The notes under the pieces were generated by a model. It saw only the letters and a list, made by a program, of their open reading frames with translations, made no database searches and was not told where the DNA came from. Position numbers and translations under genes: made by a program. From contig JAYFMW010000020.1 in the NCBI GenBank assembly GCA_042408215.1, forward strand, positions 352,001-416,000: a stretch of DNA of 64,000 nt, written 5' to 3'. This DNA comes from Microcoleus sp. (GTDB lineage Bacteria; Cyanobacteriota; Cyanobacteriia; Cyanobacteriales; Microcoleaceae). Positions 1 to 40,166 of the stretch are shown in pieces. Position 1 is the first letter of the stretch; every line of letters begins with the position of its first letter.

Positions 1-1
1 T

Positions 2-451
2 CTTCACAAATATCAGATCAAAGGATTAGTCTTGGATGTGGATGAAACTCTCGTCCCCATCACAGCAGCAAATGCTTCTCCCGAACTCAGTTTGTGGGTG
101 GCAGAGATTAAACCAGTGGTATCGGTATGGTTGGCGAGCAATAATTTAAGTCAGAATCGGATTGGTAGGATTGCTGATTCTTTGAATCTACCATACATCA
201 CGGGTGCTGCTAAACCGTCGCGCCGCAAGTTGCGAAGGGCTGTGACTGCGATGAATTTGCCGGTGGAGCAGGTGGCGATGGTGGGCGATCGACTTTTTAC
301 TGATGTTTTAGCCGGCAATCGTTTGGGTATGTTCACTATTTTAGTGGAACCAATGGTTAATGCTGGGGAAGCGGTGCGGAAATATCCGTTGCGCTCTTTT
401 GAAGTTTGGGTATCTCAAGCTTTGGGAGCAACTCTGAAAACTAAAGATTAG
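2..451 (+). CDS. YqeG-family HAD IIIA phosphatase (5' end outside window)
   Basis: Frame open from base 2: KGLVLDVDETLV (HAD motif I), AAKP, MVGDRLFTDVLAGNRLG. Confidence 0.88.
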   Translation, partial: LHKYQIKGLVLDVDETLVPITAANASPELSLWVAEIKPVVSVWLASNNLSQNRIGRIADSLNLPYITGAAKPSRRKLRRAVTAMNLPVEQVAMVGDRLFTDVLAGNRLGMFTILVEPMVNAGEAVRKYPLRSFEVWVSQALGATLKTKD

Positions 452-570
452 CAAGAAGTCATTAGTCATTAGTCATTAGTCATTAGTGGGGAGGGCGGGT
501 TTACAAATATCCAGGACGTGAATCATAGATTTTGGTGAACCCGCCCCTACAGTATTGGTTATAATCAACT

Positions 571-639
571 AGACATCGCAAGAATTGCCAGCTTTGAACA
601 GGCAGGATGCCTGTTCCACAAGAATTATTGGAGATGTCT
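571..639. mobile_element. 69-bp AGAC...GTCT mini-MITE with ACT target duplication
   Basis: act-AGACATC...GATGTCT-act; internal GAACAGGC/GCCTGTTC hairpin; same-length copies at 39433-39501 and 53865-53933. Confidence 0.7.
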
Positions 640-703
640 ACTGGAAATGATATTATCACTAATAACTAATAACTACTGACTACTGACTACTGACTACTGA
701 CTA

Positions 704-1813
704 ATGACTAAAACTATTGTTGTTAAAATTGGAACTTCAACTCTGACGCGATCGACTACAGGAAACTTGGCTCTTTCAACCGTTGCTGCATTAGTCGAGG
801 TTTTGGCCGATTTGCGGCAGCAAGGTCATCAAGTAGTTTTGGTTTCTTCCGGTGCGGTTGGGGTGGGTTGTGCGCGCTTGGGTTTGACCGAACGCCCGCG
901 AAATATCGCTCTGAAACAGGCTGTAGCCGCCGTAGGACAAGGGCGGCTGATGCGGGTGTACGATGACTTGTTTACCACATTGCAACAGCCGATCGCGCAA
1001 GTTTTGCTAACTCGCCGTGATTTAGTGCAGCGTAATAGTTATGTGAATGCTTGCAATACTTTTCAGCAACTGTTGCGATTAGGCGTGATTCCGATCGTCA
1101 ATGAAAACGATACTGTAGCAGTAGACGAACTCAAATTTGGTGATAATGATACCCTGTCAGCATTAGTAGCCAGCTTAGTCGAAGCAGATTGGTTATTCGT
1201 GCTCACAGATGTCGATCGGCTGTATTCCGCCGATCCGCGCAGCAACCCCGACGCGCAACCAATTGCCTTAGTACAAAGTATGGCACAGCTAACAGAATTG
1301 CAAGTGCAAACAGGAGATTCCCGCAGCGGTTGGGGAACCGGCGGAATGGTGACAAAAATTGAAGCGGCGAGAATCGCAACAGCATCGGGAGTCCGCACAG
1401 TCATCACCGATGGCAGCTTTCCGGGTAATATAGAGAAAATCATCAACGGAGAGTCGATCGGCACTCAATTCGAGCCTCAACCGCGCCCTGTAAACGCTCG
1501 GAAACACTGGATAGCCAACGTGCTAATTCCGGCGGGCAAACTTTACTTAGATGCGGGTGCTGTCAAAGCAATTGCTCAAGGTGGAAAATCGCTTTTAGCC
1601 GCCGGAATTTCGCAAATAGAAGGAGATTTTCAGGTTGAAGATGCCGTGCGTTTGTGCGACGCTGAAGGCAAAGAAATTGCTAGAGGACTTGTGAATTATA
1701 ACAGTTTAGAATTGAGACAAATTCAGGGCTGCCAGTCAGATAAAATTGCGGAAATTTTAGGTTATGCAGGTGTAGAAACCGTGGTGCACAGAGATAATTT
1801 AGTAATTGTTTAA
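704..1813 (+). CDS. proB: Glutamate 5-kinase
   Basis: [31 protein letters not shown]-terminal PUA domain. Confidence 0.97.
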
Positions 1814-1945
1814 ATCACAAGAAATCGAGATCGTCGATCGCATTTTGTGAGTTTTTTCACCCCAAAGTAGTCTAAAATCACCAGAACTCATTGATTGGTT
1901 AAATCCCAGTTTCTCCAGGTATTCTAGAGCCGCATGGCCGTAATA

Positions 1946-2055
1946 TATAGCAGTTCTCAATCTTGGTGAGGTATGCCCTATGCCCTATGCCCTATGCCCT
2001 ATGCCCTATGCCCGCCGATCAAGCGTGCACCGCACTGTTACTGAGAAAGGCTATA
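1946..2055. mobile_element. TATAG...CTATA MITE (TA-flanked, IS630-like ends) containing CCCTATG heptamer array
   Basis: Imperfect terminal inverted repeats TATAGCAGTTCTCA / TGAGAAAGGCTATA; relatives at 17666, 37455 and 46938. Confidence 0.65.
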
Positions 2056-2099
2056 TAGCATAGATAACAGTGTTTGCGATCGTACATATTTGTATTTGA

Positions 2100-2223
2100 C
2101 ATCCTGGGAAATTGTGATTTGCATCATATTGTGCAGGACCAATAAATCGGGGTTGAGAGCGAGGATACTCTTAGCTAGACTTACTGGTGTTGAAAGGAGT
2201 ATAGATGACAATTTCCCAGGATG
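2100..2223. repeat. MITE-like element with 16-bp perfect terminal inverted repeat
   Basis: CATCCTGGGAAATTGT ... ACAATTTCCCAGGATG. Confidence 0.6.
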
Positions 2224-2292
2224 AATTGCCTTTGGGTGCGTTCTGAGTTAATCTGTGCTTTGGATCAGTTAAGAAAAATCTAGGAGCTCAGA

Positions 2293-2742
2293 TTGGAACG
2301 CACTTTTTTAGCAATTAAGCCCGATGGTGTACAGCGCGGACTCGTCGGCGAAATTATCGGTCGTTTTGAAGCCAAAGGCTTTACGCTAGTTGGTATGAAG
2401 CTGATGACGGCGAGTCGCGAACTAGCCGAACAGCACTATGATGTTCACAAAGAAAGACCATTTTTTCCTGGACTGGTAAACTTTATCACTTCAGGCCCGG
2501 TAGTGGCGATGGTGTGGGAAGGCGACGGCGTTGTGGCTTCGGCGAGAAAAATCATTGGTGCCACAAATCCTTTGAATGCAGAACCGGCGACAATTCGGGG
2601 CGATTTTGCAGTCAATGTCGGCCGCAATATTATTCATGGTTCTGATGCTATAGAGACGGCCCGTGCGGAAATTAGTCTCTGGTTTAAGGAAGAAGAATTG
2701 AGTGCTTGGACACCTTGTTTAACTCCTTGGATTGTGGAGTAG
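2293..2742 (+). CDS. ndk: Nucleoside diphosphate kinase
   Basis: [27 protein letters not shown] start with AGGAG RBS. Confidence 0.97.
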
Positions 2743-2804
2743 TTTTGATATTCTCCCGATGGATTAATCGGGAGATATTCTGAGTTTTAGTGCATAAATA
2801 CCAA

Positions 2805-3200
2805 AGAAACCGGGTTTTTAGCAATAGCTTCGGCTGTAACGAAGGATTCTCGAAAAAACCCGGTTTCTGGCCACGCATCACAACCAAAGAAACCGGGTTT
2901 TTAGCAATAGCTTCGGCTGTCACAAAGAATTCTGGAAAAAACCCGGTTTCTGGCCACCCCTCAAAACCAAAGAAACCGGGTTTTTGGCAATAGCTTCGGC
3001 TGTCACAAAGAATTTTCGCAAAAACCCGGTTTCTGGCCACGCCTCAAAACCAAAGAAACCGGGTTTTTAGCCAGAGCACCGACTGTAACAAAGGATTCTC
3101 GGAAAAAACCCGGTTTCTGGCCACACCCAAAATCTCAGAAACCGGGTTTTTGCCCAAATCACCGACTGTAACCAACTATTCTGGAAAAAACCCGGTTTCT
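2805..3200. repeat. Tandem array of five ~83-bp palindromic AGAAACCGGGTTTT...AAAAACCCGGTTTCT units
   Basis: Repeated inverted-repeat unit with related (not unique) loops; same family at 16054, ~21000 and ~22070. Confidence 0.85.
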
Positions 3201-3305
3201 CGCCACCCCGCGCATCCATGCGAAAAAAACTTGCCATCCCCCGCCCCAAACAGATGAGTTTCACCGATAATTAATCTAGCGAACCATCCCAAATCCCCAA
3301 TCGCC

Positions 3306-6300
3306 ATGAACTCTGAACGCCAACAAGCCTATCTCAACCTGATTAATCAACTGCTAAATAGTCCCAGCGGCGAAGAAGCGGAGATATTGAAAACTCACCC
3401 GGAATTGCTGGATGATGGCTTGGTGGCGGCAATGCTAGAAAAGGCAGATAATCTCAGAGAACAAGGCGAACTAAATAATGCTAATTGGTTGAAGAATTTT
3501 GCCGGGCTACTGGGTAAGGTGGATGGCGACTTCCTAGCGGGAATTGCACTGAAAGCAGAAGCAGACAGACTGTTATAACAAGGCAATCAGCAGTATGGAA
3601 TCAGTCAATTTCGAGAAGCTTTGCAGTCTTGCGAACGGCATTAACTATCTATCAGAAAATAGTAAATCGCCAAGGAGAAGCTGATTCCCTCGGCAATTTG
3701 GGCAATGCTTACCATTCCCTAGGGCAATTCCAGAGGGCGATCGAATTTCACCAACAGTCTTTAGAGATTTAACGGGAAATCGGATATCGCGTAGGAGAAG
3801 CTGCTTCCCTCGGCAATTTGGGCTTAGCTTACAAATCCCTAGGGCAATATCACAGGGCGATCGAATTTCACCAACAGTCTTTAGAGATTTCACGAGAAAT
3901 CGGATATCGCGATGGAGAAGCTAATTCCCTCGGCAATTTGGGCTTAGCTTACAAATCCCTAGGGCAATACCACAGGGCGATCGAATTTCACCAACAGTAT
4001 TTAGAGATTTCACGGAAAATCGGATATTGCCAAGGAGAAGCTGGTGCCCTCGGCTATTTGGGCTCAGCTTACGATTCCCTAGGGCAATACGACAAGGCGA
4101 TAGAATTTCACCAACAGTATTTAGAGATTTCACGGGAAATCGGAGATCGACGAGCAGAAGCTGCTTCCCTCGGCAGTTTGGGTTTAGCTTACAAATCCCT
4201 AGGGCAATACCACAGGGCGATAGAATTTCACCAACAGTATTTAGAGATTTCACGGGAAATCGGAGATCGACGAGGAGAAGCTGCTTCCCTCGGCAGTTTG
4301 GGCAATGATTACTATTTCCTAGGGCAATTCCAGAAAGCGATCGACTTTCACCAACAGTATTTAGAGATTTCACGGGAAATCGGAGATCGCCAAGGAGAAG
4401 CTAATTCCCTCGGCAGTTTGGGTTCAGCTTACGATTCCCTAGGGCAATACGACAAGGCGATAGAATTTTACCAACAGTATTTAGAGATTTCACGGGAAAT
4501 CGGAGATCGCCAAGGAGAGTCAATTGGTCTAAATAATTTGGGAGAGACTTTACTAAAAACTAACCAACTTGCTGAAGCTGAAACAGCGCTTCGTGCCTCA
4601 ATCAAAATTCGTGAAACTCTGCGTTCTGAATTAGTCAATAATGAGCATAAAGCCTCAATCTTTGAAACCCAAGTATATGCTTATCGCAACCTGCAAAAAG
4701 TCCTAGTTGCCCAAACTAGATTTGATGAAGCCCTAGAAATATCAGAAATGTCCCGCACCCGCGCCTTCGTCGAGTTATTGCAGCAAACCTTATTAACAAC
4801 CCCCCCTCAGTCCCCCCCTTATCAAGGGGGGGAAGTAGATAAGTCCCCCCTTACCAAGGGGGGGTTGGGGGGGTTATCAATTCCCAAAATCCAACAAATC
4901 GCCCGCGACAGAAACTCCACAATAGTTGAATATTCGATTGTCGAGTCAGACATCATTTACATCTGGGTAATCCAACCAAACGGCAACATCACCCATCGCG
5001 CCGCCAACCTCGAACCCCTCAACCAACAAAACCAAACCCTCAAACAAATCATCCTCAAAACCCGCGTCTCCATCGGCACCGATGAAACCGACGACGCAGG
5101 CAACAAAATTCAGCTAGAATCCGAGTACAAACGAGACGAAACAGGCCGCTTTCCCCTCTTGCAACTCCTCCATCAAATCCTGATCGAACCCATCATCGAC
5201 TTACTCCCCACCGATGCCAATAACCCCATCATCTTCATCCCCCACTACGACTTATTTTTAGTTCCTTTCGTCGCCTTGCAAGATAGCAACAACCGCTACC
5301 TAATCGAAGATCATACCATCCTCACCGCCCCATCCATCCAAGTATTAGAAATCACCCGCGAACATCAAAACCGAGTGCGAGGATTGAGACAAGCCGCCCT
5401 AATTGTTGGCGATCCAACCATTCACCCAAAATTAAAAGAAAAGCTACAAACTCCGCCAAATCTCCAGGGCAAAAGAAGCCGCCGAAGCCATCGCCGCCAC
5501 TTTACAAACCCAAGCAATTACCGGAGACAATGCTACCAAAGTCGCCATTTTAGACAGAATGCTAAACACGCGCATCGTCCATTTATCCGCCCACGGACTC
5601 ATCGACGATTTCCAAAGTTCCGGCATTCCCGGCGCGATTATTTTAGCACCATCGGGAGACGACGACGGCGCAATTCATGCTATAGATATCCTGCAATTAA
5701 AACTCGATTCCGAACTCGTAGTATTGAGTGCGTGTAGCACCGGCCGTGGTAGAATCACGGGAGATGGAGTCATCGGATTGTCGCGCTGTTTCATCCTCGC
5801 CGGAGTCCCCAGCATCGTGGTTTCCCTGTGGGATATGGGAGTGATTTCAGCCAAGTTGCTAATGACTGAATTCTACCAAAATTTAGCACGGGGCGACAAT
5901 CGAGCAGCGGCCTTGCGGTGTGCTATGCTAACCACAAAAGCTCGATTTCCGAGTCCGAAAGCTTGGGCTGCATTTACGCTAATTGGCGAAACCGAAACTT
6001 TCCCGCTGTCAACTGCAAAAACAGATTTAAGGAGATTAGTCATGTCACTTCCCGATGATGCGAAACCCGAACAAATTGTGGCGGCTTTTAATCAGTTATT
6101 GAAAATATCGGAACCGCAATTTGTGGCAGAATTATCAGCGATTGATATTGGTGCGATGGATAATGTGAATGTGATTGCTCAAAGAATCAAGGATTGGTGC
6201 GAAAGTCGGCCTCAAATTGAAGAGAATTTGGAGAATGAGATTGAACTTGCGGGTGCGGGCGGGACTGATAGTGATGCGCATGAGGAAGTGGTGAGGGAGT

Positions 6301-6410
6301 TGTATGAGGCGTTGAAGGAAAATCAGATTCGGTTGGGTTTGTCTAGGGATTCTGTGGTGGTTGAGGGCCCGGCCCCGGCGGTGGGTGAAGAAGGCCCCGG
6401 CGGTGGGTGA
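3306..6410 (+). pseudogene. TPR-repeat + CHAT (caspase-like) protease, disrupted
   Basis: 40-aa/120-bp TPR units; CHAT motifs IFIPH, HLSAHG, LVVLSACSTG, SLW, WAAF. Lesions: TAA 3576-3578, frameshift ~3635, TAA 3770-3772, frameshift ~5444. Confidence 0.88.
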
Positions 6411-6597
6411 AGAAGGCCCCGGCGGTGGGTGAAGAAGGCCCCGGCGGTGGGTGAAGAAGGCCCCGGCGGTGGGTGAAGAAGGCCCCGGCGGTGGTTGAGG
6501 GCCCCGGCGGTGGGTGAAGAAGGCCCCGGCGGTGGGTGAAGAAGGCCCCGGCGGTGGGTGAAGAAGGCCCCGGCGGTGGGTGAAGAAGGCCCCGGCG
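6371..6597 (+). repeat. 22-bp tandem repeat GGCCCCGGCGGTGGGTGAAGAA (~9 full copies plus one short)
   Basis: Directly visible; runs into the first REP. Confidence 0.92.
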
Positions 6598-7135
6598 GTT
6601 GAAACCGCGGCTACACAAACGATGTCCGCCTCCGCGGACGAAGAGGGTATTCGGAGATGAGAAATCACCGATTGGAATCTTCAACCCGCGGAGGCGGGTT
6701 TTGTTTGTGTAGACGCGGTTTCAACCGCCGGGTAATGAGAAATCACCGATTGGAATCTTCAACCCGCGGAGGCGGGTTTTGTTTGTGTAGACGCGGTTTC
6801 AACCGCCGGGTAATGAGAAATCACCGATTGGAATCTTCAACCCGCGGAGGCGGGTTTTGTTTGTGTAGACGCGGTTTCAACCGCCGGGTAATGAGAAATC
6901 ACCGATTGGAATCTTCAACCCGCGGAGGCGGGTTTTGTTTGTGTAGACGCGGTTTCAACCGCCGGGTGATTGAAAATCGCCGGGTATTCAACCCGCGAAG
7001 GCGGGTTTTGTTTGTGTAGACGCGGTTTCAACCGCCGGGTGATTGAAAATCGCCGGGTATTCAACCCGCGAAGGCGGGTTTTGTTTGTGTAGACGCGGTT
7101 TCAACCGCCGGGTGATTTGAAACCGCCGGGTGATT
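6590..7135. repeat. GTAG-family REP array (one inverted copy, then 4x78-bp and 2x71-bp units)
   Basis: GTAG-AC-GCGGTTTCAACCGC hairpin plus AACCCGCGGAGGCGGGTT hairpin in each unit. Confidence 0.88.
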
Positions 7136-7586
7136 GAAAACCGCCACGTAAATTTTTGGAACCTGCGAAAGCAGGATCAGAAACCCATTCCCATTCAGGA
7201 ATCATTGATTTTTGACGGTGGTGAACAGCCTGATTTCTGATATAGTTGGCTACATTGTCGATCGCATCACGGCTAACCGTAAACGCCCCATAACTACCTT
7301 GCCATTTAAAAAACACACCAGGTTTAAGTTCGTGAGTTACTAAATGAGAAGAACTACCCTTAACTTCCTTAATAATTTCAGCTATTGTCAAAGTTGACGG
7401 AAAACCGACTAGCAAGTGTACATGATCCTCTATCCCACCAACAGCAATTACAGTGCATTTTAAATTATTACATTTTCCAATAATAACCGCATAAATTGCT
7501 TCTTGAATATCGGGAGTAATCAAAGGCAATCTATCCCAGGTTGCCCAAACATAGTGTACATACAACTGCGTGAAATTCTCTCTCAT
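7101..7586 (-). CDS. tnpA: IS200/IS605-family Y1 HUH transposase, REP-associated (RAYT-like)
   Basis: LYVHYVWAT, DHVHLL (HUH), KGSSS, WQGSYGAFTVS, catalytic YIRNQ; REPs on both sides; no tnpB. Confidence 0.88.
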   Translation of the reverse strand: MRENFTQLYVHYVWATWDRLPLITPDIQEAIYAVIIGKCNNLKCTVIAVGGIEDHVHLLVGFPSTLTIAEIIKEVKGSSSHLVTHELKPGVFFKWQGSYGAFTVSRDAIDNVANYIRNQAVHHRQKSMIPEWEWVSDPAFAGSKNLRGGFQSPGGFKSPGG

Positions 7587-7611
7587 TTTTCGTACAATAT
7601 ATCAAATTTCT

Positions 7612-7976
7612 CTTCAACCTGCGGAGGCGGGTTTTGTCTGTGTAGCCGCGGTTTCAACCGCCGGGTAATTCAAAACCGCCGGGTGATTGAAAATCACCGG
7701 GTCAAATCTTCAACCCGCGGAGGCGGGTTTTGTCTGTGTAGCCGCGGTTTCAACCGCCGGGATTGATTTACGGCACAATGAAATCATAATGATTATATCC
7801 CAATTGAGGCCCCGGCGATTGGAAATCGCGGCTACACAAACGATGTCCGCCTCCGCGGACGAAGAGGGTATTCGGAGATTAGACCCCGGCGATTAGGCCC
7901 CGGCGATTAGGCCCCGGCGATTAGGCCCCGGCGGTTGAAACCGCGTCTACACAAACAATGTCCGCCTTCGCGGACT
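7612..7976. repeat. REP cluster on the other side of tnpA (both orientations) with short GGCCCCGGCGATTA repeats
   Basis: Same GTAG(C/A)CGCGGTTTCAACCGCCGGG motif and its reverse complement. Confidence 0.85.
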
Positions 7977-8015
7977 AAGATTGAATTAACATTATGTTTC
8001 ATCCCGGATTCGATT

Positions 8016-9584
8016 ATGCAGGAACCACAGCAAATTAAAAATCCCAGCATTACCCTCTATCCTTTCCACCTGCGGAATGATAGCGACGAAGGCTATGACG
8101 CAGTAGCCAAAAATGCTCAATCTCTGTGGGAAAATCTAGCAGATAATGTCGGCACAGAATTTAACAGCAACGAACTCAAATCCCTCAGAGAAAAGCTAAC
8201 TTGCTACAAAGACAAACAGTATTATCCCAAGGGTGAACAGGAAAATCCCAATAATGGCAAATTGCTGATTCCCGATGGCAAAACTCTGGATTTACAGCCC
8301 ATAACTCAGCCAGATAAGCCAACACTTTACGGTTCTATCTATCCCCTGCGAATTCACGATACTTACACCGCAGACTTGACATTTTACTATAAAAATGTCA
8401 CAATGAAAGTGGCGGACTTAAATCAATTAAATCCCCAAGGTTGTTTGTTACCAAATGCAATTAAACCGTCCTTGGGACAAACATTATTGTTATACGCTAC
8501 ACCAGCATTTTATGATACTTACCCCAAGCTAGCCGACGAATGCGTTACAGCTTTTGTCCACAATCAACAGCAAGCATCACCAAAGTTTCGCGCCGAGGGA
8601 AAGTTATTCGGGAGTCCGATTTTTGAGTATGACAGCCGAGAAGATGATGCGGCTAAACGGTGTCATATTCTAGTATGGTTACAAGACAATCCCCAAACTT
8701 TGGAATCCGCAAACTTTGCGACGTTTAATTATCATTTGATGAATCTACTGTGTTCTCGTGCTAAAATTGTATTTGTCTATTGCGAAGCTCGGAAAAAGTA
8801 TCGCAAAGCACAGCAAATTGTCGGCGAGTTAGAAAAGAAGCTTCCCGAATTCGGTGAAGTAGAAAGAGAACAAAATCGACAAGTTAAGTTGCAGAAGTTG
8901 AAGGATTTGCTGGCTGAAGTCCGAACCAAAATGTTTGCTTGTGCTCAGCAGGTGCGGTATTTGCAGGAAGATAGAAATACGATTGATATTAATGCTGAAA
9001 ATTATGCTGATGCTTTGACCAGAATTAAAAGTTTGTCTATGGAAGGTGATAATCTAGATTTTTGGCAGAGGTTTCTAGATTTGGCTGAGGATAAATATCA
9101 GCGGCAAATTGAAATTTATTTGAAGTATCTGATTGCTAGTCAAGATTTGTTCCAGCAGTCGATATCTACTGTGCGGGGGATGGTGGAAATCGAACAGGTG
9201 GAATTCGATCGCGAAAAGGAAGAAAGAGAACGTCAGCGCGATCGCGAACAAATACAATTATACAGGGAAAAGGAAGAAGAAGAGAAAATTCGCGATCGCG
9301 AACAAATACAATTATACCAGCAAAACGAAGACAAAGAGAAAAAGCGCGATCGCCAACTTGAGAATATCATCTTTTTTGTCGGAACTGCGATCGGTGGCGG
9401 CCAAATCTTTTCCGCCGCCTATCCCCTAATCAAAGATACACCAATTCACTGGAAACCCGATTTTTCTCTACCCCTGCATCCCTTTGCTGCGACAATTTTC
9501 TGGAGTCTCCTGTTCGGTTTAGGATTTGGGTTGCTAACCCTGGGTGCGGCCATATTCATCAGGAAACTATTTACCAAGCCTTAA
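8016..9584 (+). CDS. Hypothetical protein: soluble N-domain, long coiled coil, two C-terminal TM helices (CorA/CATRA-like architecture)
   Basis: Long ORF; likely ATG at 8016 because the upstream part is REP; hydrophobic IIFFVGTAIGGG and ATIFWSLLFGLGFGLLTLGAAIFI. Confidence 0.75.
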   Translation: MQEPQQIKNPSITLYPFHLRNDSDEGYDAVAKNAQSLWENLADNVGTEFNSNELKSLREKLTCYKDKQYYPKGEQENPNNGKLLIPDGKTLDLQPITQPDKPTLYGSIYPLRIHDTYTADLTFYYKNVTMKVADLNQLNPQGCLLPNAIKPSLGQTLLLYATPAFYDTYPKLADECVTAFVHNQQQASPKFRAEGKLFGSPIFEYDSREDDAAKRCHILVWLQDNPQTLESANFATFNYHLMNLLCSRAKIVFVYCEARKKYRKAQQIVGELEKKLPEFGEVEREQNRQVKLQKLKDLLAEVRTKMFACAQQVRYLQEDRNTIDINAENYADALTRIKSLSMEGDNLDFWQRFLDLAEDKYQRQIEIYLKYLIASQDLFQQSISTVRGMVEIEQVEFDREKEERERQRDREQIQLYREKEEEEKIRDREQIQLYQQNEDKEKKRDRQLENIIFFVGTAIGGGQIFSAAYPLIKDTPIHWKPDFSLPLHPFAATIFWSLLFGLGFGLLTLGAAIFIRKLFTKP

Positions 9585-9618
9585 TTACACATTGTATTCC
9601 TAGGGACACGGCAATGCC

Positions 9619-9834
9619 CATTAGTGTCAACTTAACGTCAAAAGTAGTCACAGACTACTGTTTGACTATTAAATCTAGATCCCCCCTAGCCCCCCTTAAG
9701 AAGGGGGGGACAAGAGCACTCTTTCGTCACCCCCTACTCACACCCTACTCCCTTTTTAAGGGGGATTTAGGGGGATCTAGACTTTGCCTAAAAGCGACAT
9801 TTATATGGGTTTTAGGCTTAAGTTGACACCAATG
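9619..9834. mobile_element. MITE with CATT(A/G)GTGTCAACTTAA TIRs inserted in a GGGACAC REP hairpin
   Basis: 17-bp TIR CATTAGTGTCAACTTAA / TTAAGTTGACACCAATG; inverted sister copy at 17724-17943. Confidence 0.75.
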
Positions 9835-9862
9835 GGCTCTTGGAGTGTCCTTTACTCAAACC

Positions 9863-10936
9863 TCAATTATGCAACAGTTTCATCCCCATTTTTACCTTGT
9901 CCAAAATCGTCTTTTGCGACACACAAGTAATCAGACAAAGCTTGCCGCAATCCAAAGTATCGCGGCGAATTTTATGAGCTTTTTCGCCGTACCAAATCTC
10001 GCGGGCGCTTTGCTCTTTCACATTCCCAATCACCGGATATTCATCGCACAATTTCACATCGCCACGGGTATCAATCCAGTAATTGCGAAGTCCTATCCGA
10101 CAAGGCCTCACTGCATCGGGAGCCTTTTCGTCGCGGAAGTGAGGCACCATCAAACGCAATACTTCATCGCTGTTCATAATTGGCGCACCGTTTTTCTTCA
10201 TTTCAATTAGGCGCTCAATTACCTGTGCAAATTCCTCTCTGTCTGCTTCTTCTATCCACAATTCCTCATAGGTTTCTGGTGTCCAGCGATTGACTGGTTG
10301 GAAATTCACCGTCGTCGCCCCAATTTCTTTTGCCCAGGTTACTATCTCCTCAAGGTGGCGGAAATTGAGTCGGTTGATAGTAGGTTTGACGTTGATGGGA
10401 AACAGAACTCCCTGTTTTTCTTGTTCCTCGCGCAGATATCCGATTCCTTTAGAAAGTCTGTCAAACAATCCCGGTTTGCCGCGCAAATAATCGTGCAGTT
10501 CTGCATTGTGCCCGTCAACGGACATATTCACATTAAAAGGACGAGCCGCGACAGTTTTGGCTGCGTTTTCCCTGGTCATGCAATAGCCGTTTGTGGTGAC
10601 GCCGGCGTGGATGCCATTCTTGTTGGCAAAAGTCAGCAAGTCTAGAAAACCTTTTTTAATATAAGGTTCGCCGCCGCTAAAGTTGATGGAAAATTCGCCC
10701 ACAAATTCTTTGATGCTTAAGAGAGCATTTTGCCATTCTTCGATCGTCATTTCATCTTTATGTTCTTTGAGTCGCTAATACTCGCACTGACGGCATTTAG
10801 CGTTGCAGCGCTCGTTGATGATTCCGTAAAAAGTGACTGGGCTGGTAATGTCGTATCCTGTATTGATGCGGAGCGATTCGGCTACTGCATTCTTAGTGTG
10901 TTTGACTCCCAGTCTGGACAATGTTAAAGCATCCAT
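9863..10936 (-). pseudogene. Radical SAM/SPASM protein with in-frame TAG right after the CxxxCxxC motif
   Basis: ATG 10936 reads ...ERCNAKCRQCEY*RLKEHKDEMTIEEW; TAG at 10777-10775; FSGGEP; SPASM cysteines CRIG, GDVKLC, CGKLCLITC. Confidence 0.85.
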
Positions 10937-11357
10937 GTTTTTTCTCTTAGGTATTGTTGACTAAGTAAATTTATTTAACCCAATTGCGTATTGATTACGC
11001 ATTGCTTGTAAGTAGGTATGCACCCATACTAAGCGTTACTTTTGGGCGTGGCTAGATGTTTTTCAAAGTTTTATAATGTTAAAGTATGTAACATATGAGT
11101 ATTGTAAATACTTCAAATGTATTTTTGGATTAAACTGTGAAATTCGCTTAACAATTAATTTTATTCAGTATTATTACCGAATAAGCTGTAATATTAAGTA
11201 ATATACTTTTACAATACTTAATGCATAAACTCAGTATAACTACTTAAGTAAAATTCCTCAATAAGTTAAAATTATAGTTAGAACGGAAGCCAATCAAGCA
11301 GTTAACTTCACACAAGCTTTACAATATGATGAAATCTAAGTATTTCAACGGTGAAAA

Positions 11358-12152
11358 ATGGCGATCGACATGGGACGATATTTGCACGTAGTGAAACTGT
11401 TCTGGGGTGCGGCGATTTCGGCAGAGATCGAATACCGAATAAACTTTCTATTGGCGGCCCTCAGCAGCCTCGGAAACCTTGCTGGCAGCCTGTTTGGACT
11501 GTTTCTGTTCTATCGCACTGGTTACACGTTTTCTGGGTGGACATGGGAAGAAGCCTTAGTTGTACTGGGTATTTTCACGATTTTGCAGGGCTTTTCGTCA
11601 ACGTTTCTAGCACCTAATCTCAGCCGTATTGTCGATCGCGTGCAACAAGGAACTCTCGATTTTGTCCTCCTAAAACCCATTAATTCTCAATTCTGGCTGT
11701 CTGCAAATACAGTTTCTCCTTGGGGAATGCCAGATTTAATCTTCGGTATGGTATTGTTGCTGTATGCTGCTAACAAATTAGGAGTACAAATCAGCAACTA
11801 TTTCCTAACTGCAATACCGCTGTTATTTGGCATGGTGAGTCTTTATAGTATCTGGTTTATGTTAGGTGCAACCAGCATTTGGTTTGTCAAGATTTATAAT
11901 GTTACTGAAGTGCTCAGAGGATTGTTAGAAGCGGGTAGATTTCCAATGGCTGCTTATCCCGCAGCTTACCGATTTTTCTTTACCTTCATAGTCCCGGTTG
12001 CTTTCTTGACCACAGTACCGGCAGAAGCAATGCTAGGTAGAGGTGATATACTTTGGATAGCAGGGGCGGGAATTTTGGCGATCGCACTTTTGTTCGCTTC
12101 CCGCTACTTCTGGCAATTTGCTCTCCGATTTTACACCAGCGCTTCCAGTTAG
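11358..12152 (+). CDS. ABC-2 family transporter permease (DUF990-like)
   Basis: EYRINF, GTLDFVLLKP, multiple TM helices, YTSASS terminus. Confidence 0.85.
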   Translation: MAIDMGRYLHVVKLFWGAAISAEIEYRINFLLAALSSLGNLAGSLFGLFLFYRTGYTFSGWTWEEALVVLGIFTILQGFSSTFLAPNLSRIVDRVQQGTLDFVLLKPINSQFWLSANTVSPWGMPDLIFGMVLLLYAANKLGVQISNYFLTAIPLLFGMVSLYSIWFMLGATSIWFVKIYNVTEVLRGLLEAGRFPMAAYPAAYRFFFTFIVPVAFLTTVPAEAMLGRGDILWIAGAGILAIALLFASRYFWQFALRFYTSASS

Positions 12153-12434
12153 TTATAGCAGAAGGAAGTTCGGCAACGGATTATGTAACGGATGTAACGG
12201 ATGGATGGAATACAGAAGTTGGAAGGAAGAAGGAAGAATATCGATGTGAAAATGCAATTCTGGTATTCGTTTTGGTGATGGATAACGTCCTCGCCGTCGA
12301 GCAGGTTGCTATATATAATTGATAGCAGTTGATGGTTGACATTTGACGGTTGATTGTTATATAATAAAATCACATTCTTTTAAATTAGTATAGCAATCTC
12401 GACTTGAAATCAAAAATCAAAATAAGGCAAACCA

Positions 12435-13298
12435 ATGAAAAACAAAAAACTCGGAAACACTAATTTTAATATCAGCGCAATTGGTCTGGGAGGAATGCCA
12501 CTGTCCTTGAGCGGTCGGCCGACAGAATCTCAATCAATTGCAGTAATTCACCGCGCCCTCGATTTGGGCGTGACACTAATTGACACGGCAGATTCCTACT
12601 GTCAAGATGAATCCGACAAACACCATAATGAGGAACTGATTGCTAAAGCTTTACAACAGTATACTGGAGATATTAGAGCTGTCACCGTTGCTACAAAAGG
12701 CGGCTTAATGCGGCCTCAAGGTGCGTGGACGCGCAACGGTAATCCCCACCATTTGCGCAAGACAATTCGCGAAAGTTTTGAAGCCTTGGGCGGCCAAAAA
12801 CCGATCGACCTTTGGCAATATCACTCCCCCGATCCCAGTTATACCATCGAAGCAGCCCTGGCACCGGCAAAAGAAGCTGTAGAAGCAGGAATGATTCGAT
12901 TTATTGGAGTTTCCAACTTTTCTGTAGAACAAATCAAACGTGCCCGTGATACAGTAGAAATTGTCTCTGTTCAGAATCAATATAATCCTTGGCACAGAGA
13001 GCCAGAATCAGACGGCGTGCTGGAATATTGCGAAGCCGAAAAACTGACATTTTTTCCTTGGAGCCCTTTGGGAGGAAGTCGCCGGGCCACAAGTTTGCAA
13101 GATGTGCCGGCGATCGCGAAATTAGCCGCCGAAAAAAATGTCTCAGTTTACTGTATAGTATTAGCTTGGTTGATGGCAAAATCCCCCTGTGTCGTTCCGA
13201 TTCCCGGTGCGACAAAAGTATCGAGTATTGAAGACTCTTTGCGGGCGATCGAAGTTAAATTGACTGACGAGGATTTGCAACAAATCTCATTAAGTTAA
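12435..13298 (+). CDS. Aldo/keto reductase
   Basis: IGLGGM, IDTADSY, IGVSNF, VQNQYN, PIPGAT. Confidence 0.93.
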   Translation: MKNKKLGNTNFNISAIGLGGMPLSLSGRPTESQSIAVIHRALDLGVTLIDTADSYCQDESDKHHNEELIAKALQQYTGDIRAVTVATKGGLMRPQGAWTRNGNPHHLRKTIRESFEALGGQKPIDLWQYHSPDPSYTIEAALAPAKEAVEAGMIRFIGVSNFSVEQIKRARDTVEIVSVQNQYNPWHREPESDGVLEYCEAEKLTFFPWSPLGGSRRATSLQDVPAIAKLAAEKNVSVYCIVLAWLMAKSPCVVPIPGATKVSSIEDSLRAIEVKLTDEDLQQISLS

Positions 13299-35999: not shown

Positions 36000-36426
36000 T
36001 CAGCCCTCTGCTAGATCGCACCGACTTCTCAGTTGTTGAGGTGAGAAAATGGGAATAGGCGACCCTGGGAATCCATTCACATCACGGGTAACGATCGCCT
36101 CTAAGTCTAACTCGATCGCACAGGCTATCTGCACCGCATCTTCAAAATCCGGCAATCAAGGGCGCGATCGCTTCCTCCAGAACATCTCGATCCACCGCAC
36201 AAATTTCCATCAATGTCAAAAGTCGAGTTACGGCGGAAATCCCAGCTTCAGAACTCTTGGTTTGTCGTCCCACCAAATAATGCACATCCGTAACCGTTGT
36301 CGCCGACATACACCCTTCAACTCGCCCCGATTCAACTGCATTCAGTAAAAAAGCAGCATCCGCTAAAAAAGGTTCCCGGCCAAGCATTGCATCCAGTAAA
36401 ACATTGGTATCAAATAAAACTTTCAT
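36000..36426 (-). pseudogene. PIN-domain (VapC-like) toxin, frameshifted
   Basis: VLFDTNV; DFEDAVQ and IVTRD lie in another frame after ~36160. Confidence 0.82.
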
Positions 36427-36653
36427 CACAGATACTTTTGTACTAACCGCTCATCTAACATTGCCTTTACTTCTGCATCTGTAGGAGGTGGCGCGTCCGT
36501 TTTCGCAATGCCAATTAAACTCGCAGCTAAACCCTTCGGTTTCACCTTCGATCGGGGTTTCGGTTGGAGCGATCGCATCAAAGCATTGATTAACTGCCAT
36601 CGCTCCTCGGCAGACAATCTCAGCGATCGGTCTTGAAGTTCGCGTAATGTCAT
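36426..36653 (-). CDS. Putative antitoxin of the PIN toxin
   Basis: Small ORF overlapping the PIN start; LS.EERWQL motif. Confidence 0.7.
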   Translation of the reverse strand: MTLRELQDRSLRLSAEERWQLINALMRSLQPKPRSKVKPKGLAASLIGIAKTDAPPPTDAEVKAMLDERLVQKYL

Positions 36654-36705
36654 AATAGTTTTATCTTTGACAGAAAACATTGGACAAGCAGGCAAGTATA
36701 TAAAT

Positions 36706-36934: not shown

Positions 36935-37195
36935 ATGCCCTACAGTCAATTTAGCATCGAACAAATTAAGACAAATTTTGGCATAACTTTTACTAGGAGG
37001 GTTGGGTTGTTTGCCGATATTCCCGAAATCGAACCCAGCATTTTTTTGCAAGAAACTTTGCAATTCAATCTACCTTTAGCACTAGAAATAAATTCCGAGA
37101 AAGCTCGCTCCGAGCTAATTGTCGCGCCGATATTAGTTGAAATCAAAAAACGGCTGCCGGAACGGATGAGTTTATTTTCCGGTCGAGAATTCAAT
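36935..37195 (+). pseudogene. 5' half of conserved cyanobacterial PD-(D/E)xK-like protein interrupted by insertion
   Basis: SEKARSE.IVAPIL...SLFSGREFN joins in frame to [13 protein letters not shown] at 39828. Confidence 0.85.
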
Positions 37196-37350
37196 AGACC
37201 TCTTGCAAAATAATTTTATGCTATAATCAAGGGTTTGGCTTAAGTGGAGCAGATTGCAGGTTAGATCAGCACTTTACAATTATGAGTTAGCTCTCAGGTC
37301 TAAAACTCAAAGCCTTTAATTCTAACATAGATTTTTTTTGCAAGAGGTCT
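37196..37350. mobile_element. Left MITE (155 bp)
   Basis: AGACCTCTTGCAAAA...TTTTGCAAGAGGTCT flanked by AAT on both sides. Confidence 0.85.
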
Positions 37351-37454
37351 AATTATTAACTCACTACCCATTCAACCATTACCTCTACGTTGCCTTTTTC
37401 CATAAAAGCCTAAACTTCAATCAGCCTTGAATCATAAAAACTGAGCCGCAATGA

Positions 37455-37560
37455 TATAGCGTTTCTCAGAAAGATGAGGTATGCCGAGGTATGCTGCAAC
37501 CCTTACAGTATCAAGCTTTTCTTGGCAAAATGGCACCTCACTTTTTAGAGAAAGGCTATA
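37455..37560. mobile_element. TATAG...CTATA MITE
   Basis: TATAGCGTTTCTC...GAGAAAGGCTATA, internal TGAGGT/ACCTCA. Confidence 0.65.
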
Positions 37561-37578
37561 CCTCACGAAGGATTTGCG

Positions 37579-37665
37579 GCATAACGGTCTAGTTGAGCCG
37601 CTACAGATGACCTTTGGATTTTAAAGATCACTTTTGATGAAGTCGGCTCCAACGCAGTGTTAGGC
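37579..37665 (-). other. Integron attC recombination site
   Basis: Minus strand GCCTAAC-N5-GTTGGAGCCG...CGGCTCAAC-N6-GTTATGC, one extra base in L''; 2 nt after the antitoxin stop. Confidence 0.75.
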
Positions 37666-37667
37666 GG

Positions 37668-37955
37668 CTATACGGGAGTAGCTCGTAAACGGATACCAAG
37701 TGATTGTATAACTCTTAAAACAGTAGCAAATTCTGGATTACCTTCGAGGGACAAAGATTTATAGAGGCTTTCACGTCCTAATCCTGTTTCACGCGCAATA
37801 TTTGTCATTCCCTTAGATCTAGCAATGTCACCCAATGCTGCTACCACTAGATTAGGATCGCCATCTTCAAGAGCGGCTTCAAGATAAGCTGCCATATCTT
37901 CTTTAGTTTCTAGATGCTTTGCTGCATCCCAAAGATAGGTTGGAACTTTGTTCAT
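37668..37955 (-). CDS. Addiction module antidote, HTH (HI1420/HigA-like)
   Basis: YLEAALE, ALGDIARSKGM..IA..TGLGRESLYKSLS..GNP. Confidence 0.9.
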   Translation of the reverse strand: MNKVPTYLWDAAKHLETKEDMAAYLEAALEDGDPNLVVAALGDIARSKGMTNIARETGLGRESLYKSLSLEGNPEFATVLRVIQSLGIRLRATPV

Positions 37956-37972
37956 GAGATCTCCTATAGGTT

Positions 37973-38250
37973 TTATGATAAGTCTAAGGCTGTTTTGATA
38001 TCCCGATCTTGGGTACGTTTATCTCCACCTGCAAGCAAGACAATTAACGTATTTCCTCGCTGTATGAAATACACGCGATATCCTGCACCATAGTCAATAC
38101 GGAGTTCTGACACACCTTTTCCTATCGGTTTTACGTCACCAGGATTGCCCATAGACAATCGCCGAATACGTCGATACGCGCCCTAGCTTCCCGATCGCGC
38201 AGTGATTTAAACCACCGAGAATAGATTTCAGTCTCCCGAATTTCAATCAT
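37973..38250 (-). pseudogene. RelE/HigB-like addiction module killer (HI1419-like), frameshifted
   Basis: MIEIRETEIYSRWFKSLRDREARARID, then frameshift ~38168; GNPGDVK.IG.GVSELRIDYGAGYRVY..LLAGGDK. Confidence 0.85.
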
Positions 38251-38256
38251 GCTTTG

Positions 38257-38275
38257 ATTGTATCCTATGAGATAC
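38257..38275 (-). promoter_or_regulatory. Putative TA promoter -10 (TACAAT) overlapped by GTATC-N6-GATAC operator; leaderless start
   Basis: Palindrome at 38260-38275; -10 ends 6 nt before ATG 38250. Confidence 0.5.
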
Positions 38276-38420
38276 GGAGAAACAAGCAATAGGAAAACTT
38301 GCTTAACTACTTTTGTTCAAGCAAAGATAAGGTGCGTTACATTTCATTAACGCACCCTACAAGATCGGAGATCGCACTGTCATTATGAATATGTGCAACG
38401 TCAATTTTATTCCCAATAAA

Positions 38421-38999
38421 TTAAATTTTCGGAAAACAAGCGTCAAATACTTCAGTTAAGTCAATGATTTTCGCCTGCCAAGCCGCTTCTCCTTCTAATG
38501 CTTTTAGCGCAGAACCTCGGATCATAAATACATTGTCACCTGGATAATCGTTATTAGACAACATCTCACGCACTTCCATTTCAACTAATACTAGTGCTTC
38601 ATCATCATCGGATATATCGCACTTGTTCAGAAATGTCGCAATATAGGGAATACCAGCCTGTTTTGCCATTTCGACCTGTTCACTGGTTTGCGATGTCAGC
38701 CCTTCGGTCACAGAAACAACTAGAATTGCGCCATTGAATTTAACATCCCCTGCAAGCACATTGTTCAAATCATCGGCATTACTTGGATAGTCAACATGGG
38801 TATAGTGACGCACTGGAGTATCGTATTCTACAGTATGAGAAGTCGTAATTTGCTCGAAGGAATTTTCTTGACCACCAAATCGTTTCGCCGTTACCTTGGA
38901 TAGTGCCGCAGTAAGTGTAGTTTTACCGTGACCTGTATGACCAATGGTAATAATATTGTTGTGCTGTTTAGTACGTTGAAATGCTTCTTGTGATGACAT
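38421..38999 (-). CDS. Stand-alone EF-Tu G-domain homolog (no domains II/III)
   Basis: GHTGHGKTTLTAA, VEYDTPVRHYTHVD, GAILVV, FLNKCD, VEMEVRE, RGSALKALEG; ends at the domain I boundary. Confidence 0.85.
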   Translation of the reverse strand: MSSQEAFQRTKQHNNIITIGHTGHGKTTLTAALSKVTAKRFGGQENSFEQITTSHTVEYDTPVRHYTHVDYPSNADDLNNVLAGDVKFNGAILVVSVTEGLTSQTSEQVEMAKQAGIPYIATFLNKCDISDDDEALVLVEMEVREMLSNNDYPGDNVFMIRGSALKALEGEAAWQAKIIDLTEVFDACFPKI

Positions 39000-39167
39000 G
39001 GTGTTAACCAGAAGTGTTGTTTTTTTGATTTATAGAGAACAATTAATTTTACTTTACAAGATCGCCTCAAACCATGAAAGCTAAAATGTTCATTCAGTAG
39101 AATGCGTTGGTTTGACATCAACACATTCTACAAGATAGGCGATCGCACTGCGTTAGTTAAGATTAAA

Positions 39168-39395
39168 TTACAGCTCAATTACATTGCCAGCCTGACGACC
39201 AAGTTTTTGGCTTGGGCTTGGTATAAAGGTAAATTCTACCCTCTGCCCTTTCTCCAAAGTTTTGAAGCCTCTCTTCGTCATCTGGATTGCAGAAAAGTGT
39301 ACGTATATATCCTCAGTGCCGTCATCTGAACAGATAAAGCCAAAACCTTTTTCAGCATTGAAGAATGTTACTGTACCCGTCATTTTTTCAGACAT
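39168..39395 (-). CDS. Cold-shock domain protein (CspA family)
   Basis: RNP1 KGFGFI, RNP2 YVHF, GFKTL..GQRV.F. Confidence 0.92.
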
Positions 39396-39432
39396 AAAAA
39401 CTTCCTAAAAGTTATTTACTTGGCTGTCTAAT

Positions 39433-39501
39433 AGACATCTCCTAAAAAGACTTTCAAGAACAGGCAAGATGCCTGTTCCACAATAATTATGGGAGAGGTC
39501 T
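39433..39501. mobile_element. 69-bp AGAC...GTCT mini-MITE in the csp leader
   Basis: Same size and hairpin as 571-639. Confidence 0.65.
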
Positions 39502-39646
39502 AGTTTATAATTGTATCGCAGTTGCGGTACAATACTATATACAGCGGAATAATACCGCAGATCGAGGATGTATGTCAACCCCTTCTTACTGCCCATCGGA
39601 ATCTCCTTTCCTCGATTAATTGCTCGATCGCCAAACTCAACCCAAT

Positions 39647-39824
39647 AGACCTATTGCAAAAAAAATATGTGTTATACTTAAAAGTTTGCTCAAGTTTAGG
39701 TCAAATTTTGGTCAAACTTTGAATTATTGGGTTGATTGGCATCTCCTTAAACTTGCCCAGCCTACTAAATCATAAAATTAGCTAGACTTTCTATAATAGC
39801 ACAAAATTATTTTGCAATAGGTCT
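39647..39824. mobile_element. Right MITE (178 bp), inverted relative to the left MITE
   Basis: AGACCTATTGCAAAA...TTTTGCAATAGGTCT flanked by AAT on both sides. Confidence 0.85.
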
Positions 39825-39827
39825 AAT

Positions 39828-40166
39828 GTGGATGCTGCTAGGGGCTTGAGCGGTTATTGCGATTTTCTAATTAGCCGATCGCCCGAACAGCTAGTCATTG
39901 AATCCCCAGTTGTCGCCTTGGTTGAAGCCAAAAATGATAACATTCAATCCGGCTTAGGACAGTGCATGGCAGAAACGATCGCAGCCCAAATATTTAACCA
40001 GCGTCAAGAAAATGACATTCAGACAATTTATGGAGTTGTCACAACTGGGAGTATCTGGAAATTTTTTAAGTTAGAAGGAATTGCGATCGAGATGGATACC
40101 AATGAATATTTTATCAATAATGTTGGTAAAATACTCGGTATCTTAATAAATTTTATAGAGTCTTGA
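39828..40166 (+). pseudogene. 3' half of the interrupted gene starting at 36935
   Basis: GYCDF, LVEAK, GLGQC.AE..AAQ.FN, YGVVTTG..WKF. Confidence 0.85.

Follow-up and report, generated by a model that had tools for sequence, protein, structure and literature searches.

Elongation factor Tu (EF-Tu) is among the most conserved and most abundant proteins of bacteria, and two laboratory derivatives of it resemble the protein that we report here. One is PDB entry 1efm, trypsin-modified EF-Tu lacking part of switch I; the other is the isolated G domain (domain I) of Escherichia coli EF-Tu, which was reportedly engineered by Parmeggiani and co-workers in 1987. Trypsin-modified EF-Tu and the isolated G domain both reportedly still fold and bind guanine nucleotides. 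Among natural proteins, a census of translational GTPases (trGTPases) lists actEF-Tu2 of Actinobacteria as the bacterial EF-Tu paralog, and all trGTPases recorded there carry the G domain together with the domain II region (Atkinson 2015, PMC4342817). PseudoGTPases such as degenerate septins keep the G-domain fold, have lost catalytic residues and presumably act as binding modules (PMC10731463); they belong to a different superfamily branch from our protein. Here we describe EF-Tu-G, a stand-alone paralog of EF-Tu domain I encoded by an intact 192-amino-acid (aa) open reading frame (ORF; ATG start) at 38421-38999 on the minus strand of a 64,000-nucleotide stretch of Microcoleus sp. DNA (assembly GCA_042408215.1, contig JAYFMW010000020.1, positions 352,001 to 416,000), which we call the window. 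Its sequence marks EF-Tu-G as an apparent pseudoGTPase of EF-Tu descent, natural and mobile, that consists of the G domain alone.

Canonical EF-Tu (NCBIfam TIGR00485; E. coli TufA/TufB, PDB 1efc and 1dg1) has in common with EF-Tu-G the predicted fold of domain I, the P-loop Lys/Thr, Asp80, NKCD, SAL and helix D, and domain I of EF-Tu-G is ~53-54% identical to the E. coli type. In contrast to canonical EF-Tu, EF-Tu-G lacks domains II and III as well as switch I, has Asp21, Gly83, His84 and His118 replaced, and is encoded on a mobile insertion rather than in the str operon. Over 186 chain residues, 1efm aligns with residues 3-190 of EF-Tu-G and shows a similar gap. Because both laboratory fragments reportedly fold and bind nucleotide, a protein of this kind can be stable; those fragments are artificial and keep the catalytic residues, whereas EF-Tu-G is natural, apparently selected, and has lost them. 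Literature searches, whose scope left older subscription papers aside, returned no described G-domain-only EF-Tu, EF-Tu-derived pseudoGTPase or EF-Tu-like defense component.

Results

Domain Content, Motifs, and Predicted Fold of EF-Tu-G

The Pfam profile GTP_EFTU (PF00009) matches EF-Tu-G with 97 bits against a cut-off of 26.5, residues 11-190 covering profile positions 1-187 of 188, and is its sole Pfam match; PF03144 and PF03143 found none. The EF-Tu equivalog TIGR00485 scores 205.2 bits, below its cut-off of 522.4, and only positions 2-201 of its 394 are matched, so that EF-Tu-G has neither domain II nor domain III and thus not the three-domain architecture of EF-Tu; the ORF ends at the domain I/II boundary. 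Residues 3-191 align with solved EF-Tu chains (e.g., 7bbn_A) with a single gap of 12-13 residues, at switch I. This alignment and a column table also show that the G3 motif DCPGH has become DYPSN (Gly83 to Ser, His84 to Asn), that the P-loop GHVDHGKT reads GHTGHGKT (Asp21 to Gly), and that His118 is replaced by Gln. The catalytic and switch motif set of EF-Tu (the P-loop with Asp21, RGITI with Thr61, and DCPGH with His84) is therefore not present in EF-Tu-G, which does retain the P-loop Lys/Thr, Asp80, NKCD and SAL (GSALKA), including the guanine-specificity motifs G4 (NKxD) and G5 (SAL). By its lost catalytic residues EF-Tu-G would be classed as a pseudoGTPase. The initial annotation, made from the letters of the window, had described an intact ORF of 192 aa that corresponds to EF-Tu domain I only, lacks the effector segment, carries DYPSN in place of DCPGH, keeps NKCD and SALK and stops at the domain I/II boundary; each of these statements is borne out, the ORF being real, the PF00009 model being matched from end to end and TIGR00485 over its first half. 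That annotation gave no strand and did not list the replacements of Asp21 and His118.

An AlphaFold2 model built from the family alignment described below is compact, with a mean predicted local distance difference test (pLDDT) score of 84.5 and a predicted template modeling (pTM) score of 0.83, and superposes on E. coli EF-Tu domain I with a template modeling (TM) score of 0.90-0.92; in this model EF-Tu-G is predicted to fold like EF-Tu domain I. The gene is not an assembly quirk, because the identical protein is found on three contigs and a variant with two substitutions on two, and because DNA sequencing runs contain 0.44-0.98 of the sampled words. The same genome also has two full tuf genes adjoining fusA, each of 409 aa and ~51% identical to EF-Tu-G. 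These two tuf-fusA loci (G000:C23:14913-16139 and G000:C28:265206-266432) score alike (748.2 bits each) and represent either a true duplication at the end of the str operon or redundancy of the 30-contig assembly.

A Family of Proteins with the Same End Point

Homologs were sought among proteins of 105-336 aa, of which 8000 candidates were scored. Most matches were tuf genes cut by contig ends, and some had natural ends at the same domain I/II boundary as EF-Tu-G; the similarly shortened homologs whose existence the initial annotation had proposed to check were thus found, in a short and a long subfamily with a common end point. The short subfamily consists of four sequences that have the switch I deletion and DYPS in common: P0001, P0270 (2 residues off P0001), P0004 (65% identity) and P0005/P0271 (64-66% identity), the last from Planktothrix sp. 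PCC 11201. The long subfamily has at least 10 forms of ~205 aa (P0015, P0272, P0011, P0274, P0275, P0120, P0281 and P0290-P0292), in which switch I is present in degenerate form and the G3 and G4 motifs are DCPAQ and NHCD, respectively. Among organisms, its source records name only "Thiolinea sp." metagenome-assembled genomes (MAGs) and "Desulfobacteraceae bacterium IS3"; its clusters represent dozens of contigs, the longest of 424,913 bp. In the ESM Atlas, the closest cluster counts 81 members and is represented by a 205-aa protein.

A ten-member profile gave most family proteins 335-419 bits (P0005 only 305) and ordinary partial tuf at most 315, four artefactually duplicated sequences being set aside in this comparison. 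A maximum-likelihood (ML) tree built from 72 rows of domain I unites the short with the long subfamily in a single clade, with a Shimodaira-Hasegawa-like approximate likelihood ratio test (SH-aLRT) support of 97. The common end point is seen in all 14 family rows of the tree set, and in all 14 Asp21, Gly83 and His84 are replaced. EF-Tu-G has the marks of this clade: the stop at the domain I/II boundary, D21G, the loss of His84, Y87D, K89N, I92L and P111L, and monophyly with the other members.

The P0084/P0283 group (7 cluster members) falls outside the gamma-type group of the ML tree and has Asp21 changed to Asn, His84 changed to Asn, a switch I deletion and the end point of the main clade; it looks like an independent origin of the G-domain-only form. 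A profile search of proteins of 371-2000 aa for fused forms yielded nothing beyond ordinary EF-Tu, artefactual duplications of it and the accessory forms of 395 aa discussed below. P0062 is only a frameshifted copy of a full-length Dolichospermum-type gene. An all-against-all search of representatives also turned up P0204, a degenerate G-domain-only protein of 197 aa. Other unusual forms, which like P0204 appear in metagenomes, are P0122 (427 aa), a tandem of two degenerate G domains, and P0244 (383 aa), in which switch I is deleted and domain II duplicated; P0244, P0249, P0178, P0264 and P0268 are full-length proteins with an altered P-loop or His84.

Selection and Residue Conservation

The truncation and the switch I deletion are common to EF-Tu-G and the Planktothrix gene, so the divergence between the two arose in the truncated state. 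Over 187 codons, the pair gives a dN of 0.21 and a dS of 1.04, with a dN/dS of 0.20 that is approximate, being near saturation in dS and taken from one pair, and is far from 1; the corresponding value for tuf domain I in the same two genomes is 0.06. EF-Tu-G thus appears to have been under purifying selection since its truncation, and the ratio near 1 expected of a decaying tuf fragment, which the initial annotation had named as the result that would count against it, did not materialize.

In 31 tuf rows, 110 positions (E. coli numbering 1-200) reach a conservation of at least 95%, and these served as the reference set. Among them, 45 are kept by the 14 family rows, 22 are lost and 43 are mixed. 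Switch I (7 of 13 positions) and switch II/helix B (9 of 20), as delimited here, account for 16 of the losses. Helix D has no losses at its 11 positions, 7 of which are kept, all four positions of SAL/helix E-F are kept, and neither beta-4 nor the NKxD stretch shows any loss. At five positions the family has settled on a new residue, present in at least 90% of its members (D21G, Y87D, K89N, I92L and P111L). This is the pattern to be expected if catalytic and switch functions and contacts with domains II/III were shed while a nucleotide-binding core with one conserved face was kept.

Origin and Full-Length Accessory Paralogs

A split of the ML tree with an SH-aLRT of 96 places the family clade together with all 13 gammaproteobacterial tuf rows, and on the same side stand the full-length accessory EF-Tu of Planktothrix agardhii plasmids (L042), that of genome G447 (L043) and a gamma-like tuf from a Streptomyces-labelled record; the 14 cyanobacterial tuf rows lie on the opposite side. 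Forcing the family with cyanobacterial tuf costs 16.2 log-likelihood units and is not rejected by the approximately unbiased (AU) test (p 0.183; 64 rows, the 8 longest branches dropped). In the host's own tuf the ALEA...KGEDPW segment is 10 residues longer, and the extra residues are absent from EF-Tu-G. The initial annotation had noted this absence of the cyanobacterial-type insertion and a resemblance to the proteobacterial form. The absence itself stands, but the indel alone is no proof of such an origin, picocyanobacterial tuf (~399-401 aa) being also shorter. A gammaproteobacterial-type origin of the clade is favored by the tree split and by the E. coli-like cspA cassette next door, and is not proven, because the AU test keeps the cyanobacterial alternative.

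The accessory full-length paralogs comprise P. agardhii "tuf" (BBD57065.1 and WP_254032763.1; 393 aa, on four plasmid records), the Dolichospermum MAG genes (P0382 and P0397; 395 aa) and the G447 gene (392 aa, in a housekeeping context). They are of gamma-type ancestry, partly plasmid-borne, and have derived states in common with the EF-Tu-G family: a replaced Gly83, mostly His118 to Gln, Q-x-G-I-P-Y-I, and DYPGD / DDLPV. The accessory paralogs keep three domains, switch I and His84 and could still elongate, whereas the window protein, by its domain content, could not. A plausible path leads from a gamma-type tuf that moved to mobile DNA through loss of catalytic residues to truncation and, in the short branch, deletion of switch I; we infer the order of these steps. 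On two annotated P. agardhii plasmids, the accessory EF-Tu comes directly after a helicase / N6-methylase / DEAD-box helicase cluster. In L044/L046, this DISARM-like row (~1-13200) consists of helicase-related, N6 methylase, Rpn nuclease and Uma2 endonuclease genes and a 1790-aa DEAD-box helicase whose tail is DUF1998-like and Vsr-like, and the full-length EF-Tu paralog that follows has GHINHGKT and DCPSH. The 421-aa second tuf-like frame of some congeners was also considered as a relative and discarded, since it is canonical cyanobacterial-type tuf, unrelated to the family.

Distribution

With EF-Tu-G as the query, no truncated homolog was found in any of 60 relatives (36 of the same genus and 24 of the same order), where the best matches were open frames of 401-488 aa bar one cut by a contig end, or in any of 400 other cyanobacterial genomes sampled, where all 25 matches at E <=1e-50 were frames of 401-413 aa. 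The sole match of a one-genome-per-species scan was Planktothrix sp. PCC 11201. There, two XisH/XisI pairs are followed by the EF-Tu-G gene, and beyond it come an ORF of 124 aa that matches nothing in Pfam and a transposase that is IS630-like. On a metagenome contig with Planktothrix-like upstream sequence, the EF-Tu-G gene is cut after codon 28 by inserted DNA. IMG/VR yielded no close EF-Tu-G relative, and the matching records of the phage collection (14) and plasmid collection (103) were all below 60% identity and were ordinary tuf bar the Planktothrix full-length paralogs. The shortened homologs, the dN/dS of 0.20, the absence from these 60 and 400 genomes and the insertion described next agree with the earlier view of an acquired and selected gene rather than random decay.

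The MITE-Bounded Insertion

EF-Tu-G arrived as cargo of a composite insertion bounded by miniature inverted-repeat transposable elements (MITEs). The insert (37196-39824) is 2629 bp long, has an AAT duplication at its flanks and splits a PD-(D/E)xK gene. Its left border is a MITE of 155 bp (37196-37350) with terminal inverted repeats (TIRs) of TAGACCTCTTGCAAAA type, and its right border one of 178 bp (39647-39824) that has these terminal repeats too but differs in its interior; over 49 nt, the outer arms show 80% complementarity. The split gene runs on the plus strand, its 5' part at 36935-37195 (ORF 36935-37213; PADLOC PDLC01472 positions 2-35) and its 3' part at 39825-40166 (ORF 39828-40166; PDLC01472 positions 37-140, E 1.5e-39). 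In four species of the same genus the gene is uninterrupted, with 199-206 aa and 93-97% protein identity, and a fifth congener (L054) has a PD-(D/E)xK frame of 128 aa. At the empty sites of L051, L052 and L053 the flank DNA alignments abut with an overlap of 3 nt, and it is this overlap that defines the 2629-bp insertion with its AAT duplication (left 37193-37195, right 39825-39827). L054 and L055 likewise have an uninterrupted gene, with alignment ends off by a few bases. Matching outer TIRs, target-site duplication and an empty site in relatives, the marks of a composite MITE-bounded transposon, are thus all seen here, and the insert holds no transposase.

Of the 41 genomes in the group, 30 contain the TIR family (TAGACCTNTTGCAAAA), whereas a reversed control gave no matches. 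Genome G017 has up to ~530 TIR ends; the window genome has only the four of this insert. AAT stands at all four MITE borders, the inner ends included, which suggests a 3-bp target preference; we infer two separate MITE insertions at the donor site, after which the whole unit moved. Just outside the insertion, the minus-strand region 36142-36695 holds a PIN-domain (VapC-like) gene, apparently shortened (95 aa against a profile of ~115-120), with an antitoxin-like ORF upstream of it.

Other Cargo of the Insert

All cargo genes of the insert are on the minus strand. The cspA-like cold-shock domain gene (39168-39395) encodes 75 aa (Pfam CSD 1.6e-22), and the closest solved relative of its product is E. 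coli CspA (PDB 2l15/1mjc, 1.8e-19). A leader and coding region like the enterobacterial cspA thermoregulator (Rfam RF01766) extends over 39200-39546, matching model positions 1-428 of 428 with 74.6 bits, just under the gathering cut-off of 78 (E 3.4e-18). Directly upstream of this leader is a sigma-70-like promoter, TTGACA-18-TATTAT (39549-39578; 11 of 12 consensus positions), a consensus match in a region whose total of promoter-like sites equals the shuffle expectation. Cyanobacteria are generally said to be without CspA-type proteins. A CSD match in a small frame was present in 1 of 30 relatives (G047), the matches in 7 others lying in frames of 183-1622 aa, and the Synechococcus elongatus control had no small CSD gene. 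One CSD match, in L045, was weighed as a linked gene and judged coincidental, being 10 kb from that genome's accessory EF-Tu.

On the other side of EF-Tu-G lie an intact HigA-like antidote gene of 95 aa (37668-37955; Pfam dnstrm_HI1420 1.5e-31) and a frameshifted Gp49/HigB-like toxin gene (37973-38289; ORFs 37973-38158 and 38131-38289, Pfam Gp49 1e-5 on the 3' ORF). The toxin gene has in-frame stops, and related environmental contigs have 4 extra bases after 38169. A terminator-like hairpin on the minus strand (38327-38360) is found just 3' of the EF-Tu-G stop, inside a short dispersed repeat (38325-38378; ~50-nt unit, GCGATCGC core) that occurs next to many kinds of sequence in metatranscriptome contigs; its sister copy at 39116-39150 (83% identity) lies 3' of the cspA-like gene. 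A second kind of dispersed repeat, at 39428-39502, has a ~75-nt unit and ~40 copies across the contigs of the genome. Four RNA-type runs, which hold only 5-6% of the sampled words, were mapped: they gave contigs on the toxin-antitoxin genes (from relatives, 90-99%) and on the repeat 38325-38378, and one of them an identical contig on 39097-39274, at the 3' end of cspA; the lack of a contig over EF-Tu-G is no evidence either way.

Discussion

We propose, with a probability of roughly one half, that EF-Tu-G is a working noncatalytic descendant of EF-Tu, a mimic or competitor of the EF-Tu G domain that ties up one of its natural ligands. It would probably still bind nucleotide: guanine nucleotide binding is predicted from the motifs because the P-loop Lys/Thr, Asp80, Asn135 and Asp138 of NKxD, and SAL are kept. 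It would not perform ribosome-activated GTP hydrolysis or switch between GTP and GDP states, given the deletion of switch I and the replacements at Asp21, Gly83 and His84, and lacking domains II and III it should be unable to carry aminoacyl-tRNA. Helix D, the face of EF-Tu for the N-terminal domain of EF-Ts and the C-terminal domain of L7/L12, is the one EF-Tu surface left with no loss of invariant residues; from this intact face we favor the role of mimic or competitor, which is the weakest step of the explanation. EF-Tu-G would then modulate or halt the cycling of factors, or sequester a factor directed at EF-Tu, a role that fits the toxin-antitoxin, defense and mobile-element company of the family.

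Several observations weigh against this proposal. The lysine of NKxD (Lys136) is Gln in two of the four short and His in all ten long members, one sequence having NQFE, and because this lysine varies (NQCD, NQFE, NHCD) nucleotide binding is not secure. His84 and His118, which clamp Phe81 of EF-Ts, are lost in most family members, and the G domain of E. coli EF-Tu, engineered as an isolated fragment, reportedly does not respond to EF-Ts; both points disfavor EF-Ts as the ligand. A co-fold of EF-Tu-G, from the family alignment, with the EF-Ts of the same genome reached 0.27 and 0.22, where the mark is 0.32, and speaks neither for nor against this ligand. The environmental Planktothrix-like copy is disrupted, so that the gene is dispensable; no neighbor gene is common to the window and Planktothrix loci; and the dN/dS value is an approximate one.

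The mimic might instead serve immunity, the dead G domain titrating a toxin, phage protein or antibiotic that attacks host EF-Tu via domain I. Extra resistant target copies shield the producers of target-directed toxins in an analogous way, and the gene is accessory, patchy and carried on mobile DNA beside toxin-antitoxin genes; full-length relatives with an altered G3 (DCPSH, DCPDH) occur on Planktothrix plasmids beside the DISARM-like helicase/methylase cluster and also in Dolichospermum MAGs. One source names EF-Tu as a known target or partner of the defense systems Lit, type IV Thoeris and Avs7 (PMC12803255). The EF-Tu binders surveyed here whose sites are mapped, however, use domains II/III (Avs7, PMC12803255; CdiA-CT NC101) or cut switch I (Lit), which are the very parts absent here. 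No cognate toxin gene is conserved beside the family at the window and Planktothrix loci, and matches to PADLOC-DB were at the chance level of a P-loop (AriA E 0.0037, PtuA E 0.005), three of the five family members scanned having none; on balance we consider a decoy unlikely. The same surroundings, rich in toxin-antitoxin genes, could house a dominant-negative inhibitor of translation, a nucleotide-locked G domain that docks on the stalk or the sarcin-ricin loop and blocks factors, for example in abortive infection or growth arrest. In favor of it, both residues for ribosome-activated hydrolysis are lost and helix D is kept, yet EF-Tu-G stands alone in both loci with no conserved antitoxin-like partner, the gene stays intact in cultured strains, and domain II, which anchors EF-Tu on the 30S subunit, is missing; we regard this role as distinctly unlikely.

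The cargo next door might point to another use, in which EF-Tu-G would be transcribed from the cspA-type leader and work with the CspA-like protein on translation at low temperature. The thermoregulator-like leader and promoter-like site are on the strand of EF-Tu-G, ~550 bp upstream of it; the two genes share a cassette and a gammaproteobacterial type, and the hairpin between them did not score as a terminator. Against this, the Planktothrix copy has no CSD gene near it, the Rfam score falls just short of its cut-off and co-transcription is hypothetical, which makes a cold-adaptation accessory very doubtful. Finally, EF-Tu-G could be a functionless remnant of a transferred tuf, open by chance. 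In favor of this, the gene is very rare, one environmental copy is disrupted, and the adjoining HigB-like gene and the full-length gene P0062 are frameshifted. Yet the dN/dS of 0.20 holds over ~35% protein divergence that accrued entirely after the common truncation and deletion, the 14 family rows have the same end point and fixed family-specific residues, and the AlphaFold2 model is confident and compact, so that we think a remnant highly improbable.

Our proposal of a noncatalytic mimic or competitor can be extended, speculatively, to dead stand-alone EF-Tu G domains as a recurrent class of mimics with at least two origins (the short and long clade, and the P0084 group) that occupy the L7/L12 or EF-Ts site to throttle or protect translation in conflict or cold. 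Such a class would be mobile among cyanobacteria, Thiolinea-type Gammaproteobacteria and Desulfobacteraceae, with P0204 and P0122 as further candidates, and might here have come under a captured cold-inducible cspA leader; taken as a whole, this broader view is unlikely to hold.

A selected, mobile, G-domain-only family devoid of catalytic and switch elements would be a new architecture in its superfamily, a pseudoGTPase derived from a translation factor. In this case, native MITEs of cyanobacteria have packaged translation and cold-shock genes of gammaproteobacterial type. Binding to the stalk, to EF-Ts or to an effector directed at EF-Tu, if it does occur, would make EF-Tu-G a simple regulator or shield of translation that can be transferred, and EF-Tu-G might then offer a ready-made probe of the helix D interface.

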